NCBI GenBank assembly: GCA_965200295.1
Contig: OZ241347.1
Coordinates: 3,390,093 to 3,454,092, forward strand
DNA: 64,000 nt
From: Gammaproteobacteria bacterium
GTDB lineage: Bacteria > Pseudomonadota > Gammaproteobacteria > Eutrophobiales > Eutrophobiaceae
Direction of reading: 5' to 3'
Within the stretch, counting starts at the first letter, position 1, and the number at the start of each line of letters is the position of its first letter. Below the pieces are notes generated by a model. It searched no databases and was not told where the DNA came from. It saw nothing but the letters and a program-made list of their open reading frames with translations. This document shows, one piece after another, positions 10,072 to 64,000 of the stretch. Both the position numbers and the translations under genes were made by a program.

Positions 10072-11049
10072 TCATTCGTTGTGGTTGTTATGCGCCCGAT
10101 TGTACCACGTTTGTGCAGAAAATGCACTGTTTTCGCACAAATATTTCACCACCGCCCGGGTAATATTCATTGCGGACGGGTCGAACCAGACCGCATTCTG
10201 CTCTGATCGTAACCAGGTCAGCTGGCGTTTGGCAAGTTGCCGGGTGGCAATGACCGCGCGTTCCTGCATTTCAGCAAAATCGCACTGCCCCGCCAGGTAT
10301 GACCACACCTGCCGGTAACCGACCAGGCGCATGGATGGCAGGTCTTCGTGCATATCCTCGCGTTGGTAAAAGCCACGCACCTCGTCCACCAAGCCTTGCT
10401 CCAGCATGTGCCGGAAACGCTGCCGCACCTGCGCGCGCAGTAACTGCCTGTCGGCCGGGACCAGCGCCAGCTTGATAACCGTTTGTGACAGTCTGCCCAA
10501 GCGCCCCTTGGCAACCAGCGCGGAAAGTGGCCTGCCGGTCATTTCATACACCTCCAGCGCCCGTTGCACCCGTTGCGCATCATGCGGGTGCAGGCGCGCG
10601 GCGCTGCCGGGGTCCACGCGCCGCAATTCTGTATGCAGCGCCGCAGAACCGTGTTCTCGCAACCGTGCGCGCCAGCGCCGGCGTAACGCCGGGTCGGTGG
10701 CGGGCAGGTCGGAAAAACCCTGTTCCAGGGTGCGGAAATACAAGCCAGTGCCGCCCACCAGTAACGGTATCCGGCGCTGTTTGCAGATGGCCTCGATAGC
10801 CGCCAAGGCGTCGCGTCGAAACCTGCCGGCCGAATACGCTTCAGTAGGCTCACAAATGTCGATCAGCCGGTGCGGAACCGTCTCCAGCACATCCTTGCCG
10901 GGCTTGGCCGTGCCGATGTCCAGCCCTTTATAGACCATGGCAGAATCAACACTGATAACCTCCAGTGGCAACTGTTTGACCAACTCCAACGCCAGCGCCG
11001 TCTTGCCGCTGGCCGTCGGCCCCATGAGGAAAATGACCGTGTCATTCAT
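10072..11049 (-). CDS. miaA: tRNA dimethylallyltransferase MiaA
   Basis: 325 aa, P-loop GPTASGKTALALEL and IPP-transferase core. Conserved position upstream of hfq. Confidence 0.9.
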   Translation of the reverse strand: MNDTVIFLMGPTASGKTALALELVKQLPLEVISVDSAMVYKGLDIGTAKPGKDVLETVPHRLIDICEPTEAYSAGRFRRDALAAIEAICKQRRIPLLVGGTGLYFRTLEQGFSDLPATDPALRRRWRARLREHGSAALHTELRRVDPGSAARLHPHDAQRVQRALEVYEMTGRPLSALVAKGRLGRLSQTVIKLALVPADRQLLRAQVRQRFRHMLEQGLVDEVRGFYQREDMHEDLPSMRLVGYRQVWSYLAGQCDFAEMQERAVIATRQLAKRQLTWLRSEQNAVWFDPSAMNITRAVVKYLCENSAFSAQTWYNRAHNNHNE

Positions 11050-12781
11050 TGATCAAGGTGATGAGCTTATCCGGGGAGACCGTTCTCCACAGGCCTTGGT
11101 GATGTTTTTGCGTGGTATCAATGTCGGTCTTGTCCAGGTCGGCAAGCAAGCCTTCGAGCATGGCGTTGGTGGGTCGTTCCACACTATCTTCCAGGCTCCC
11201 TGCCATAATTGCCAATAACTGCTCGGCGGGGTCGCCACTTGCAGGTTGCGCCGGCAGGGCATCCAGCACTGCGCTGACCATGCTCTTGACGTCAACCGCT
11301 TCGAGCAATACCGGGATTTCCCTGACCGAAACCAGATGCTCGGCAACCACGCGCAAGGACAGGCCAACAGTATCCAGCAGCTCGGCATATTGCTCTGCCA
11401 TATCGACCCGACGCCGGCCAACGTCAATATGCACGGGCACCAGCAACGGGCGGCGCGGTACGGATTCATGCAGATAATCCTGCCTGAGCCGGTAACGCAA
11501 CACATAAGCGCTGAGCGCGTGGCAGTTCAGCAGCACCAGGTCCTCATTACGCTGTGCGACTGCGAGGCCCGGCGTTAGCGCCAATCGGGGAATGCCAAGC
11601 CCGGCAGCTTTAGCGAGCAGGTCTTCCTGGGGTCCCCCAGGGGTGAGGTTCTGATAGAACAAGCTGGCTTCCCGGACCTGTAGCGGCGGCTGGTAAACCT
11701 GGCGCTGCGCATAGCTGTGCAGCCTGTTTTCAGTCCCGGCTTCGCCCTCCTCGTGCAAACCCAGCGCCGCCACTGCCTTAAGCGCATCGCGCAGGCTTAT
11801 ATGGATAAAATCATGCACTACGCGGCTGTCCCGAAAACGGATTTCACTCTTGGTCGGATGTACGTTAATGTCGGTCACCGCAGGATCGAGGTCCAGATGC
11901 AACAAACAGGTGGGGTAACGCCCGGCAGGCAGGGTATCGGCATACGCTGAACGCACTGCATGGAGGATTTTCCGGTCCCGCACCGCCCTGCCGTTGACAA
12001 AACAGAACTGCCGGTCCGACTGGCTGCGGCTGAGCTCGCCGGCGCCCAGCCAGCCCCACAACTTCATGCCCCGGGAGGTATAGCTCACAGGAATGGACTG
12101 CGTCGCAAAACGGCGCCCGAATACCTCTTCCACCCGCTCTTCCATGTTGTCTGCGCAGGCGCGATAGCGCAACACGGCCTTGCCGTTGTGGAGCAACCTG
12201 AAACCGATGTTGAAGCGGCTGCAGGCCACGCGCTTGACCACTTCGCTGATGTGGAGAAATTCTGTGCTCTGGCTGCGCATGAATTTACGGCGCGCCGGCG
12301 TGGCCTGAAAAATATCCGCGGCTTCCACGGTAGTGCCGCGCGCGCGCGCCGCCGGCTTGAGCGCCGCATGGCCACTGACCGGGTCGAAGGACAATGACCA
12401 GGCAGTCGCCGTCGCCGCGCTGCTTGAGACCAGCAAAAACGAGGATACGGCCGCGATGCTGGCCAGCGCTTCGCCGCGAAATCCCAGGCTGGTGATGCAA
12501 TCCAGGTCAGACTGGGTATTGAGCTTGCTGGTGCTGTGGCGTCGCAGCGCCAGTTCCATATCGTCGGGGTGGATGCCATGACCGTTATCGCTAACGGCAA
12601 TCAGCTTGTGACCACCCTCCATGACAGTTACCGTCACCTCATCGGCGCCGGCGTCAATACTGTTATCCAGCAGCTCCTTGAGCACCGCCGCGGGCCGCTC
12701 AATAACCTCCCCGGCCGCGATCTGGCTGGCCAGAGTTGGCGGCAGTTCGGTGATACGGGGGATTGTTGACTTGTCATCCAT
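11042..12781 (-). CDS. mutL: DNA mismatch repair protein MutL
   Basis: 579 aa; GHKL ATPase motifs (IAAGEVIERPAAVLKELLDNSIDAGA, DNGHGI) and C-terminal dimerisation domain. 3' end overlaps the miaA start by 8 nt. Confidence 0.9.
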   Translation of the reverse strand: MDDKSTIPRITELPPTLASQIAAGEVIERPAAVLKELLDNSIDAGADEVTVTVMEGGHKLIAVSDNGHGIHPDDMELALRRHSTSKLNTQSDLDCITSLGFRGEALASIAAVSSFLLVSSSAATATAWSLSFDPVSGHAALKPAARARGTTVEAADIFQATPARRKFMRSQSTEFLHISEVVKRVACSRFNIGFRLLHNGKAVLRYRACADNMEERVEEVFGRRFATQSIPVSYTSRGMKLWGWLGAGELSRSQSDRQFCFVNGRAVRDRKILHAVRSAYADTLPAGRYPTCLLHLDLDPAVTDINVHPTKSEIRFRDSRVVHDFIHISLRDALKAVAALGLHEEGEAGTENRLHSYAQRQVYQPPLQVREASLFYQNLTPGGPQEDLLAKAAGLGIPRLALTPGLAVAQRNEDLVLLNCHALSAYVLRYRLRQDYLHESVPRRPLLVPVHIDVGRRRVDMAEQYAELLDTVGLSLRVVAEHLVSVREIPVLLEAVDVKSMVSAVLDALPAQPASGDPAEQLLAIMAGSLEDSVERPTNAMLEGLLADLDKTDIDTTQKHHQGLWRTVSPDKLITLINE

Positions 12782-18216: not shown

Positions 18217-18638
18217 TGAAATCTCCCAGGGTAGTCCCATTCAGTAACGCAAAGCTGTCAGGCATCTTGCCCATCGCAGACCGGCGAAAGTCTATCGATA
18301 CCGGCCTGACTTGAACAATGTGGTGAATAGTATAGTCGCATACTGGCAACTGTTCAAGCTGCTTACTTACCGGGTTGGTCTGACCAGCGAATTAACCGCC
18401 CGCGATGCAAGCACTACCAAGACCATGTTAGCCGGTAACTGGAAGACCTCTCGCATGGTTGCTCACTATTCCGCCGGCGCCACAGCGGGGCAAACTACAC
18501 GGATGTAGTTTGCAAATCATCTATCCTGACGATTTGTCATTTTCAAGCACTGACGTGCTTAAAAATGGCAGCCTATCCATAATGCTGCACGGCCACCTCT
18601 AATTTTTAGAGGTGGCCTTGTGTGTTTATTGAGTTTGG

Positions 18639-19490
18639 CTAGCCGCCTGGCCGATAGGGTGATTCCGGGCAGTAGTTTGTGCTGTCGGTAGTCCATTTCA
18701 GCGAACTTTCCCCATAAGTAGGTATATCACCATACGCCGCTGGAGGGTTGTTCAAACTATCACTTCCTGGCGTTAAAGGGGTATAACGGTCATGGGGGGT
18801 TACTTCTACAAGGCTTTTGCTCGCACACACGCAGGTGTTGTTGAGGTTGCCGCCCTGAGCTAGTTTTACTATACCGCCCCCAGTACTTTGAGGCCTCGAA
18901 CAATTGTCGTCTTCAGTTATCCCAAATCTTCGCACTGAGTTTGTATCGTAGCCAGGCGTTGATATCAACATCAATTCAAATCGACTCTCCGCAAAGGTAG
19001 AGTCGATGATGTCATTCGGCCAACAGAAACCAAACCCTCTACTCAAGGTCGTTTGTCCCACACTGACCGTATGGGTTTGTAGAGTGCGGGAAAACTCATT
19101 CAGCCTCGCTCCCGGCTCCAAAAAAGCTTCAACCCCATGATTGCGGAAATAATTGTAGCCGGATACATGCCGAAGTAGGATCCGAAATTCTGTATTGCTT
19201 GTTGCGGCTCGGCTTAACGTAATATCGTAACCCCTAAAACAACCGAGCGATTCGGGGGAAGCGGAAGCATTATCGGGTGCCCCACCGGTTATACGGGCCG
19301 TCGGCAGTAGCTGCGCCCATCCCGGCGCGGCCAGTGCCGCAAGCAGGAAGAGGGCTGTTAGTCTAGTAAAAAGTGGGGGGGGGGGGGGGGGGGGGGGGAT
19401 TTTCTGGTCAGTTGTTTCATGTGTTTCCTCTTTCAGGTTTGCCCGCCGGTGACAAAGAGACAAACCGGCGTGCGGGTGGTTAACGCACAC
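18639..19490 (-). CDS. secreted Cys-containing hypothetical protein; 5' end contains poly-C(24); likely phase-variable
   Basis: Hydrophobic signal-like segment LFTRLTALFLLAALAAPGWAQ follows a Pro8 run encoded by the homopolymer. The only RBS-linked ATG (19420..19418, AAAGAGGA upstream) is +1 out of frame at the present tract length. The annotated long frame starts at a GTG without RBS. Confidence 0.5.
   Translation of the reverse strand: MCVNHPHAGLSLCHRRANLKEETHETTDQKIPPPPPPPPLFTRLTALFLLAALAAPGWAQLLPTARITGGAPDNASASPESLGCFRGYDITLSRAATSNTEFRILLRHVSGYNYFRNHGVEAFLEPGARLNEFSRTLQTHTVSVGQTTLSRGFGFCWPNDIIDSTFAESRFELMLISTPGYDTNSVRRFGITEDDNCSRPQSTGGGIVKLAQGGNLNNTCVCASKSLVEVTPHDRYTPLTPGSDSLNNPPAAYGDIPTYGESSLKWTTDSTNYCPESPYRPGG
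19375..19398. repeat. homopolymeric G24 tract (C24 on the coding strand)
   Basis: Counted directly: 6+10+8 G. Confidence 0.95.
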
Positions 19491-19741
19491 CGTCGGATTT
19501 TCTCACAAATTGCAGCAACTGTCAATACTATAGCGGGGCTTTTATGGAGTTCCTGACGAGGCAGCCCATCGCCCCACAAGATCCATCCTATACCGTTCTG
19601 ACGCTTTGTCAAATGCGGATTTCCGGGATGTCGAATTGCCGACATGCAACAGGCGGCAGGAAGAGTAAGGCCCGCCTCTGTCTGCAAAATTACTGGCAAA
19701 ATACCGATTGACCTTTCTTTTTATCAAACAAACTGACAAAA

Positions 19742-61155: not shown

Positions 61156-64000
61156 TTACATTAGTACGAAGTCGCCCACGACTATGGCTGAGTCGAAGAT
61201 GGTAATCGTGCCGCCACCTTCATAGCTAGTTAGATCGATGACGATAATGCCATTTTCTGCCTCCGGTATAGTGACGGAACCAATTAATGCTTCGCCCGCA
61301 TCATTTTTGAAAGCGCTTAGGTCAATCTTATCTCTAGTTGTCTCAAAGTCCATGATGTAATCATCTCCATGACCTGGTTCAAAGACGAACCTATCATCAC
61401 CAGGGCCGCCGTCGAGCCAGTCGTTGCCGGCGCCGCCGTTGAGGGTGTCGTTGTCCTCGCCGCCGTAGATTTCATCGTCGCCGGCGCCGCCGTTGATGGT
61501 GTCCTTGCCGTCTTCTCCATAGAGGGTGTTGGCGCTGCTGGTGCCGTTGATCTCGTTGTTGAAACGGTCGCCGATGCTGCCGCTGATTTTCTTGGTGTAG
61601 AAGATGAAGTTGTCGGGGGTCAGGCCGTGGAAATCGTTATCGGTGTTATTGAATCCAGTCGGGGCGTTCAACCTGAGCTCGCCGCCGTTGGGCAGGTCGA
61701 TCTCAATATCACCTCCCCGGTCGGATATATCATCTTTCAGATCATCCATGGATGCGATAGAATTAAAGGCACTCAGGTCGATCTTGTCCTGGCCGCCAGT
61801 AATCGTAAATTGGTTGATCTCATCATCGCCGTCGCCAGAGGCAAACACGAAGGTATCACTCCCGGCGGCGCCAGTAAGGGTATCATCACCCCTGCCGCCG
61901 GTAATGGCACTACCTCCGCTGGCAGCGGTCAGGGTATCAGCGAAATTGGAACCGATGATATTGACAATGTTCTCTGCCAGTGTGTCTCCTGCGGCATAAC
62001 CACCTGTTTCATTAGCAGTGCCATCCAATGTTACCATGACACCCACATTAGACCTGATATAGGAGACGGTGTCCGACCCGTCGGCACCACCGTCGATATT
62101 ATCGGCGCTCCTGCCGGCGATGAAGGTGTCATCGTAACTTGAGCCTACGTACCGCTCTATATCTTCAAACGTATCACCGGCAGCATCACCCGTGCTGGCG
62201 TTGCCGCCGCTCAGGTCGAGGGTGATGCCGGCTGTGGCATTGGCGTAGGTGGCGATGTCTGCTGTCCCGGCGCCACCTTCCAGCTTATCTCTGCCGGGGC
62301 CGCCTTCCAGGGTATCATTTCCGCCACCGCCCTTGAGGGTGTCGTTGCCGCCCATTCCACGCAGCATGTTGGCTTCACTATTACCGGTCAGTGTGTCGGC
62401 GCCGCAGGAGCCGATGATATTATTAAAACCCGTTGCAATATCGCCGGTTGCATCGCCGCGGCTGACTTTGATGATGGCCAGAGATGCCGATCCGTCTCCA
62501 TTGAACCGAGTCACTTCAGCTGGAGTCAGGACTCGATTAGTGATGTCATTCAAATCCACGGTCACTGCGGAACCGGAGCCTTCATAGGACAAAAAGTCAC
62601 CGGGAGAACCGATAAGCCGGTCGCTTTGAGAGCCGCCCTCCACCTTACTATTGCCGCCGCCGGTGATTACGTCACTCCCACTGCCACCCTTGAGAGTATT
62701 CAGCATAATACCTTCGCTACTTCCGCCCCCCATTATGATGTCGTTGCCACTGCCGCCTTCGATGACGTTGGGTTGGGTATCACCGGTGAGCATGTCGTCG
62801 TAAGAACTACCGATGAGGTTTTCGAAATTAGCGCCTATCATGTCACCTTCTGCATAGGTGCCTCTGTTAGCGGCGACGTCAGCAGGACCCCCCCCCAGTG
62901 TTACTGTGACACCTTTATTTCTAATAATATTATTACCTTCGTCTCGAGCTTGAGGCGAACCCGCGTAAGACAGGGTATCTGTGCCGGCGCCGCCGTCCAG
63001 CGTATCACCGCCAGCCTGGCCGTTGATAACATCATCACCGCTGCCGCCATGTAAGCGGTCGTTACCATTGCCGCCGTTAATCCTGTCGTTACCAGCGCCG
63101 CCCCAGATGTAGTTGACACCCGAGGTGCCAGTGATGCTGTCATTGCCATCGTTGTTGAATCTGAAATTTGCTTCGTTGAGACCCGTGATGGCTGTGCCGA
63201 CATTTATCTCCTGGCTGCTGGAAATTCGGATTACATTCTCATTGGTGACATTGCCATCACCATCGACTTGTGCAGTGATATAAAAACCTCGACCAAAAGC
63301 GCTCAGGTCCAGAATGTCCCCGGTAGCTGTGGGGTCGAAACCTGTAATCGTATCGTCCCCGTCGCCGCGGGAAAATACGAAGGTATCGCGACCGCCGTCG
63401 CCAGTCAGCGTGTCATCGCCGCGGCCGCCTATGAGGGTATCATCCCCTTCACCACCGCTAATCATATCGTTACCACCGCGCCCCTCTATCACGTTAGCGC
63501 TACCATTACCGGTCAATACGTCATGGAAGCCATCGCCCGTACCATTAACTTTCGTCGCATCTGTACTGACATTGGTGCCGATGATATTCTCGAAGCCCAG
63601 CAGGGTATCTCCCGTTTCGTAGGGCTTGTAATTAGCGAGGGGCGGTGTTATGCCTAATGAACCGTTTCCAGTCTGGGTATTGGTGTCAACATCAGTGTTA
63701 GGTATATCCACTACAACCGCAGCTCTGGTAGAGCGCTCATAAGAAATCGTGTCTGTCCCACCGCCGCCGGTGATATAGTCCGGATTAGGCCCGGCGTAAA
63801 AGAAGTCGTCGTGGTTTGAGCCGACAAAGCGCTCGATGTCGATAAAGGTATCGCCCCGGGCATCGCCCTGGCCGCTGCTGTTGCGGATGGTGATGACGCC
63901 GTTGCTTTCCGAAACCGAACTCAAGTCCACAGTGACGCCTGCGGCAGCGTTTGCGTAGGTGACAATATCGAAGCCGTCGTCGGCGGCTTCATCGTCACCG
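61156..64000 (-). CDS. giant RTX-type Ca2+-binding repeat protein, 3' part (gene continues beyond the window end)
   Basis: At least 924 aa of GGxGxDxL repeats. The last ~160 codons are ~95% identical at DNA level to the 3' end of the gene at 35626..40116 on the opposite strand. Confidence 0.8.
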   Translation of the reverse strand, partial: GDDEAADDGFDIVTYANAAAGVTVDLSSVSESNGVITIRNSSGQGDARGDTFIDIERFVGSNHDDFFYAGPNPDYITGGGGTDTISYERSTRAAVVVDIPNTDVDTNTQTGNGSLGITPPLANYKPYETGDTLLGFENIIGTNVSTDATKVNGTGDGFHDVLTGNGSANVIEGRGGNDMISGGEGDDTLIGGRGDDTLTGDGGRDTFVFSRGDGDDTITGFDPTATGDILDLSAFGRGFYITAQVDGDGNVTNENVIRISSSQEINVGTAITGLNEANFRFNNDGNDSITGTSGVNYIWGGAGNDRINGGNGNDRLHGGSGDDVINGQAGGDTLDGGAGTDTLSYAGSPQARDEGNNIIRNKGVTVTLGGGPADVAANRGTYAEGDMIGANFENLIGSSYDDMLTGDTQPNVIEGGSGNDIIMGGGSSEGIMLNTLKGGSGSDVITGGGNSKVEGGSQSDRLIGSPGDFLSYEGSGSAVTVDLNDITNRVLTPAEVTRFNGDGSASLAIIKVSRGDATGDIATGFNNIIGSCGADTLTGNSEANMLRGMGGNDTLKGGGGNDTLEGGPGRDKLEGGAGTADIATYANATAGITLDLSGGNASTGDAAGDTFEDIERYVGSSYDDTFIAGRSADNIDGGADGSDTVSYIRSNVGVMVTLDGTANETGGYAAGDTLAENIVNIIGSNFADTLTAASGGSAITGGRGDDTLTGAAGSDTFVFASGDGDDEINQFTITGGQDKIDLSAFNSIASMDDLKDDISDRGGDIEIDLPNGGELRLNAPTGFNNTDNDFHGLTPDNFIFYTKKISGSIGDRFNNEINGTSSANTLYGEDGKDTINGGAGDDEIYGGEDNDTLNGGAGNDWLDGGPGDDRFVFEPGHGDDYIMDFETTRDKIDLSAFKNDAGEALIGSVTIPEAENGIIVIDLTSYEGGGTITIFDSAIVVGDFVLM

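Follow-up and report, generated by a model that had tools for sequence, protein, structure and literature searches.

This study concerned a homopolymeric tract of 24 C residues near the 5' end of a gene for a putative secreted protein, which lies in a stretch of 64,000 nucleotides (nt) of gammaproteobacterial DNA (assembly GCA_965200295.1, contig OZ241347.1, positions 3,390,093 to 3,454,092 of the forward strand; hereafter, the window). The data support, with a probability that we put at about 0.8, the explanation that the C24 tract is a contingency locus, namely a simple-sequence repeat that switches the translation of this gene on and off. Slipped-strand phase variation had been proposed for the gene in a preliminary description of the DNA, and it is now strongly supported by conserved C9-C24 tracts in homologous loci, by near-identical alleles differing in tract length, and by the occurrence of both ON and OFF alleles.

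A run census of the 64-kb window placed the tract at 19375..19398, where it reads G24 on the plus strand and C24 on the coding (minus) strand. The next-longest G/C runs measured 9 and 8 nt, with no other run exceeding 9. Since the G-run counts (133 of length 4, 24 of length 5, and 4 of length 6) drop about 5-fold per extra base, a 24-mer is no chance event, and the tract reported in the preliminary description is confirmed as an extreme outlier in the 5' coding region. On the minus strand, a Shine-Dalgarno (SD) sequence, AAAGAGGA (19426..19433), is followed after 5 nt (aacac) by an ATG (19420..19418), seven codons, the C24 tract, and ACTTTTTACTAGACTAACAGCC. The ATG and the leader codons MKQLTRK(S) occupy 19399..19420, and the slippage-prone tract, which encodes poly-proline if in frame, lies in the coding region 22 nt downstream of the ATG, with promoter-like hexamers about 100 nt upstream.

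The ATG frame reads MKQLTRKS-P7-HFLLD, 20 codons in length, and ends at a TAA stop (19360..19358), as had been described. The long open reading frame (ORF; 18639..19490, minus strand) sits in a different frame and contains KIPPPPPPPPLFTRLTALFLLAALAAPGWAQ followed by a body with six cysteines; 244 codons of this signal-peptide ORF are intact 3' of the tract. When the tract was rebuilt in silico from C19 to C28, a fusion product of 258-261 amino acids (aa) was obtained only at C19, C22, C25, and C28, while the remaining lengths gave peptides of 17-21 aa. A change of 1-2 nt in tract length is enough to put the main ORF into or out of register with the SD-linked ATG, and the earlier statement that C22 or C25 would fuse the two holds. 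The stops of both OFF frames are contained in the sequence TAGacTAA (19358..19365, minus strand; TAG at 19365..19363 and TAA at 19360..19358), located 3-4 codons past the tract.

The sole start codon of the long frame is the GTG at 19490, which has no SD sequence, again in agreement with the preliminary description. A promoter-like site lies at 19497..19525 on the minus strand (TTGACA at 19525..19520, a 17-nt spacer, and a TG-extended GAAAAT at 19502..19497; a consensus match only, 10/12). As the GTG lies only about 7 nt downstream of the -10-like hexamer, it is probably at or 5' of the transcript start, and it was rejected as the true start. It was also disfavoured by the orthologues L006, L011, and L007, in which a stop between the SD sequence and the tract closes the ORF frame.

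Concerning the mechanism, slipped-strand mispairing during replication would add or remove C residues. Only at lengths of n = 1 mod 3 (C22, C25, and so on) would the signal-peptide ORF be read from the SD-linked ATG, and the ON product, MKQLTRKS-Pro7/8-LFTRLTALFLLAALAAPGWA|Q..., would be exported as a disulfide-containing protein of about 224 aa that adopts a Calx-beta-like fold. Ribosomes in either of the remaining registers would halt 3-4 codons past the tract at the dedicated TAG/TAA stops, and no protein would be made. As slippage rates climb steeply with tract length, a 24-nt tract would be highly unstable and heterogeneity is expected within the population, giving a mixture of ON and OFF cells, that is, bet-hedging. 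The assembled C24 would represent an OFF allele, provided that the count is exact. We infer that slippage is the cause of the length changes, that these are reversible within a lineage, and that the product is exported and may have a role at the host interface.

Length polymorphism was observed between near-identical alleles. One locus was available from five independent assemblies, and its tract measured C12 (L006), C11 (L023), C10 (L025), C13 (L026), and C10 (L027), with at most 1 mismatch in 100 nt of upstream flank and at most 5 in 900 nt downstream. Likewise, L028 and L029 have identical coding sequences (CDSs; dN = dS = 0, for nonsynonymous and synonymous substitution rates), yet carry C13 and C12, respectively. 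Therefore, the tract changes far faster than the neighbouring DNA. In the five-assembly set, the C11 allele alone is read in frame, and gene calling gave a full-length protein for it (P0069; MKQPTILTPPPARLAAF / MKQPTILTPPPARLAAFLLL); out-of-frame alleles of the set were assigned internal starts (P0011, P0067, and P0070). Both ON and OFF alleles exist in nature.

The position of the tract is shared as well, among both orthologues and paralogues. Where the 5' end is intact, most family loci have a poly-C run on the coding strand directly after an SD-ATG pair and 3-8 codons, equivalent SD-ATG pairs being found 5' of the homologues' own tracts. These tracts span C9 to C24 at the equivalent 5' position and recur in more than 15 independent assemblies, from short scaffolds to contigs of 2.5-3.5 Mb. 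The OFF register was found in the window (leader MKQLTRKS, C24), in L006 (MKQPTIF, C12), L011 (MKQLTKF, C12), L007 (MKSL, C19), and L016 (MNAL, C13), in L008 and L009, which are two copies in one genome (MKRLSI, C9), and in L010, where a G9 run lies within the signal peptide instead. The tract is in frame in L002 and L003 (MFSKS, C13), and in L004 and L005 (MY(R/H)F, with C10 and C9, respectively) it belongs to an upstream leader ORF. Among the family representatives, in-frame poly-proline N-termini were seen in P0031 (MTHLPTIPPPPPHFQAVLAAVL), P0034 (MKRFTPPPINLGFLIAAV), and P0022, and in-frame alleles include P0069, P0031, P0034, and P0007.

The existence of the switch is robust, and the OFF state of the window gene is probable. 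The gene occurs in three assemblies at 97-100% amino-acid identity, with tract lengths of C24 in the window, at least C22 in L001 (GCA_026710345.1), and C21 in L024. L001 and L024 have identical CDSs, and both assemblies, which are independent, fail at the tract. L001 retains C22, but 5' of it stand an N10 scaffold gap and A/C-rich junk (240-410), and L024 has a different upstream junction, its C21 being preceded by atgaaacaaaaaa with 10 nt missing upstream. Contig edges also coincide exactly with the expected or observed tract in L018, which starts inside the signal peptide, and in L022, where G9 stands at positions 2-10. No sequencing platform is reliable on homopolymers of more than about 15 nt. 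Tracts of over 16 nt have likewise been described as hard to size (PMC1891110). It is thus possible, though clearly the less favoured case, that the tract is real with its length miscalled, so that the dominant allele is C25, C23, or C22, the gene may be ON, and the OFF call is a sizing artefact. This challenges only the present state and not the switch; moreover, OFF is a priori likelier, as two of the three registers are OFF, and most of the shorter, reliably sized C9-C13 tracts in relatives are OFF too. The earlier claim that the gene is currently OFF therefore stands in so far as C24, as assembled, is out of frame, but the call is provisional, since a 24-nt homopolymer counted in one assembly may be off by one and the other two assemblies are garbled there.

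The sequence just beyond the tract bears on a different alternative, in which RNA polymerase slippage, or a programmed shift of the ribosome at the CCC codons, rescues the OFF gene and the tract tunes the amount of protein instead of acting as a heritable switch. Long homopolymers are known to provoke transcriptional slippage, an effect better established for A/T than for G/C runs, and the excess of OFF alleles among the assemblies would fit such a rescue. However, both OFF frames meet immediate stops. In 8 of 10 genes, they are closed within 6 codons past the tract (median 3.5 codons), whereas 5.6% of positions inside the same CDSs meet the 6-codon criterion and the background median is 25 codons; as the genes are not all independent, this count is suggestive and carries no formal P-value. 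A TAR-N2-TAR motif directly 3' of the tract, which places stops in both OFF frames and encodes (R/K)-L in the ON frame, is kept in the gammaproteobacterial group (ctAGacTAAc in the window, TAGatTAG in L006, TAAatTAA in L011, and TAAatTAG in the unrelated gene L012b) and is present in L028 too. The shift needed to reach the ON frame is +1 in the window, L011, and L008/9, and -1 in L006, L007, L016, L010, L012b, and L013b. These mixed directions argue against a fixed programmed ribosomal frameshift and fit a random walk of tract length; neither a frameshift direction nor an out-of-frame arrangement is conserved across the homologues, in-frame alleles occurring too. In addition, length variation is seen directly in the DNA, and the promoter-located tracts of paralogues, described below, cannot act via translation. 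Rescue at the level of RNA or the ribosome is accordingly considered rather unlikely as the main control, although RNA slippage may contribute extra leakiness on top of the DNA switch.

Selection on the ORF was evaluated from pairwise comparisons. Between diverged members (34-62% amino-acid identity), dN/dS was 0.20-0.38, and every post-tract ORF is intact over 209-255 codons; the values for very close alleles (0.75-2.3) arise from few substitutions and were not interpreted. The ORF is under long-term purifying selection, and these data together indicate that the genes are not pseudogenes. A decaying pseudogene, with the homopolymer as its frameshift lesion, might be suspected because the window and most relatives carry the gene out of frame, and because some family copies (L014, L015, and L017) look degraded or truncated. 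This suspicion is largely refuted and was given very little weight, as the window gene keeps its 244 codons past the tract, the deep comparisons give dN/dS of 0.2-0.4, an uninterrupted tract is kept at the same site across members as diverged as those compared, in-frame alleles exist (the four named above), and the sole "lesion" is always the tract.

Two-colour Illumina chemistry is known to produce spurious poly-G runs, and junk sequence stands beside the tract in L001, but a chemistry artefact or assembly chimera, with the tract absent from the organism, is hardly credible for a tract that lies inside a 3.5-Mb contig, with a coherent SD-ATG leader on one side and the signal peptide on the other, and that recurs at the same homologous position in more than 15 independent assemblies. 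A poly-proline leader acting primarily through EF-P-dependent stalling was also rejected, as most alleles are out of frame and their lengths are not multiples of 3; the non-coding promoter tracts of the paralogues count against it as well.

Within-population heterogeneity and clonal reversibility are predictions of the contingency-locus explanation, and several points count against it. The length variation at the window locus itself, while compatible with real variation, is confounded by assembly error. About 13 of 15 fused-type alleles are OFF, compared with a neutral expectation of two-thirds; the binomial estimate (P ~0.08) is not significant and derives from our own count over alleles that are not independent, but the excess could hint that expression is not set by the DNA register alone. 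A mutL gene appears to be present in the window, as a 579-aa ORF (11042..12781, minus strand) is the counterpart of a gene that carries a MutL annotation in the syntenic locus L001 (HATPase_c, DNA_mis_repair, and MutL_C), and mismatch repair would be expected to damp slippage, although long tracts escape. Finally, not all family loci have a tract: L022 shows an intact SD-ATG start without one, L019 has only C7, and none is found in L014, L015, and L017, which look truncated or degraded.

Concerning the protein, the remainder of the signal peptide, LFTRLTALFLLAALAAPGWA, is encoded at 19314..19374 (minus strand), with cleavage predicted at A|Q between 19314 and 19313 by inspection and family alignment. 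The n-h-c layout is canonical by inspection, the family alignment shows a conserved ...AAPVxA|Q signal-peptide end, and the mature-protein CDS (about 224 aa with six cysteines) and the stop codon occupy 18639..19313 on the minus strand. The six cysteines and the conserved signal-peptide end fit a protein that is probably exported and disulfide-bonded. The protein gave no Pfam match at E up to 1, including Calx-beta (PF03160), no NCBIfam match, and no sequence match in the PDB at E up to 10. A word-indexed search of 5.8 billion proteins returned 15 family matches, and the family is small and rare, with 50 cluster representatives out of 1.84 billion at E up to 1e-3; the window ORF is protein P0064, on a contig of 3,519,297 bp. 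An exact-pattern scan of genome contigs for the window leader plus tract gave no match, nor did two metagenome-contig scans, one with a peptide pattern from the family alignment and one with the downstream flank.

The named sources on the gammaproteobacterial side are metagenome-assembled genomes (MAGs) of Gammaproteobacteria, Pseudomonadales, Arenicellales, and Candidatus Poriferihabitans, and those in Alphaproteobacteria are MAGs of Aestuariivita, Roseovarius, and Paracoccaceae. ENA records labelled ROBB21/SHAF22 likewise carry family members. By the record names only, this suggests sponge metagenomes as the sources.

An AlphaFold model built from the 15-sequence alignment reached a moderate confidence (predicted local distance difference test score, pLDDT, 66.6), residues 25-185 forming a good beta-sandwich core; the Cys-rich C-terminal segment (residues 189-230) falls outside the modelled part. 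The best PDB matches of the model in Foldseek were Calx-beta domains, namely NCX1 CBD1, Drosophila CALX, and integrin beta4, at E of 2e-5 and template-modelling (TM) scores, normalised to the target, of 0.63-0.69. The predicted similarity is at the level of the fold and is confined to the beta-sandwich core. To the eye, two motifs of the family, CW-DDIIDS...FE-R and I-ENDDC, look like acidic Calx-beta motifs; the window protein differs from Calx-beta domains in having no Pfam or PDB sequence match and in its extra Cys-rich C-terminal segment. The sponge Aggregation Factor consists of Calx-beta domains (PMC5400394), and a possible link between its repeats and the modelled fold is tempting.

Contingency loci are textbook knowledge in mucosal pathogens such as Neisseria, Haemophilus, Campylobacter, and Bordetella. 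In porA and opc of Neisseria meningitidis and in the poly-G genes of Campylobacter jejuni, the tracts occupy the promoter spacer or the 5' coding region; each genome has several such loci, and populations are mixtures of ON and OFF cells. The window gene follows the same contingency-locus logic, although the gene families and the lifestyle differ. The tract of Neisseria gonorrhoeae pilC measures roughly 11-13 nt, and that of the window is far longer at 24 nt. In gonococcal pilC, frameshifts in a homo-guanine tract of the signal-peptide region switch translation ON and OFF (PMC5354566). The window gene resembles pilC in that a G/C tract lies just past the start codon in the signal-peptide region, the window product being a predicted exported protein. 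PilC is, however, an unrelated pilus tip adhesin of about 110 kDa from a human pathogen, whereas the window protein is about 24 kDa and Calx-beta-like, and its family comes from uncultured MAGs with record names that suggest sponge metagenomes. In Bordetella, C/G tracts of up to 19-22 nt occur at genes for surface or exported proteins, including the fim promoters, with length polymorphism among strains (PMC1891110). The promoter tracts of fim2, fim3, and fimX are like those of paralogues L012 and L007 (G17/G20 in the spacer), while the window tract is coding and not in the promoter, and no fim box or BvgA context accompanies it.

The mechanism is thus of a known kind, and the gene family, the tract length, and the setting appear to be new as far as the searchable literature shows; a search of the literature on sponge symbionts and phase variation, and on Poriferihabitans, found nothing relevant. 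As a tentative extension, which we hold to be doubtful at present, Alpha- and Gammaproteobacteria that are apparently sponge-associated might share a "phasome", made up of a small, horizontally spread, secreted Calx-beta-like family and at least two unrelated secreted proteins, all gated by poly-C/G tracts (in the signal-peptide region, an upstream leader ORF, or the promoter spacer) with fail-safe stops. The symbionts could then stochastically show or hide host-like adhesion modules resembling the Calx-beta repeats of the Aggregation Factor and so modulate host recognition or phagocytosis. If this were true, contingency loci would extend from pathogens to the symbionts of marine invertebrates. 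The switch as such offers a concrete and testable way into how symbionts vary their surface or secretome when the host is a filter feeder and has to separate them from its food. For annotation, the problem is systematic: genes with such tracts receive wrong or truncated N-termini or fall at contig breaks, and poly-G/C breaks in MAGs can reflect biology instead of noise. Gene callers gave wrong or truncated N-termini at the tract genes of P0011, P0012, P0013, P0067, and P0070.

A promoter-spacer tract, flanked by -35 and -10 elements, is absent from the window gene and was found only in two paralogues. L012 has TTGAAA-ac-G17-TATAGT (G17 at 2815-2831), 38 nt before the ATG, and L007 has TTGACG-G19-TATAGT on the other strand (a G20 run at 2185-2204); both promoter-like spacers are 19 nt long, which is sub-optimal. 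At the homologous promoter site of L013, the tract has decayed to G6 (...gcaGGGGGGtaagg). Two further secreted-protein genes have the layout of SD-ATG, short leader, poly-C, and signal peptide, with mature parts that lack similarity to the family and gave no NCBIfam match. One is L012b (C12 at L012 4495-4506, gene on the minus strand, 228 aa after the tract) and the other L013b (C13 at L013 2008-2020, 209 aa after the tract), and both are out of frame.

In the alphaproteobacterial, Aestuariivita-type copies (L004 394-403, L005 543-551, and L002 6017-6029), the tract lies within a short upstream leader ORF (MYRFT-Pn or MFSKST-Pn), with a separate GGAGGG-N6-ATG for the main ORF. The register decides whether the leader fuses to the main ORF, ends at a TAATGA/ATGA that overlaps the main ATG, or reads across the main start, an arrangement that suggests three-state control via the upstream ORF. 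In L019, a perfect 13-nt tandem repeat of 5.5 copies (CTCTCAAGGGGGC; 2907-2977) stands directly 5' of the SD-ATG of another family member, and the short contigs L020 and L021 start inside it; the family genes may thus have another kind of variable repeat besides the tracts.

L008 and L009 are nearly identical copies, each with C9, located about 760 kb apart on one Paracoccaceae chromosome (OZ241737.1), and the copies in L002/L003 and L022 adjoin transposase-like genes (faint IS1/DDE Pfam matches). The twin copies, the transposase-like neighbours, and the distribution over Alpha- and Gammaproteobacteria together suggest duplication and horizontal spread of the family.

In the window, a perfect palindromic hairpin with a 12-bp stem, GGCCACCTCTAA(ttt)TTAGAGGTGGCC, lies at 18591..18617, 22 nt past the stop codon. 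It is likely to be a transcription terminator or an mRNA end, the terminator role being only a surmise since the gene strand has no T-run, and from promoter-like site to hairpin the gene looks like a self-contained unit. A search of the entire window against Rfam at gathering thresholds gave 0 matches, and no known RNA element accounts for the site. The second-longest G/C run of the window is a C9 on the plus strand (G9 on the coding strand) at 62888-62896, within a 924-aa RTX-like ORF with GGxGxD repeats (61156..63930, minus strand); it is currently in frame and could be a further slippage-prone site.

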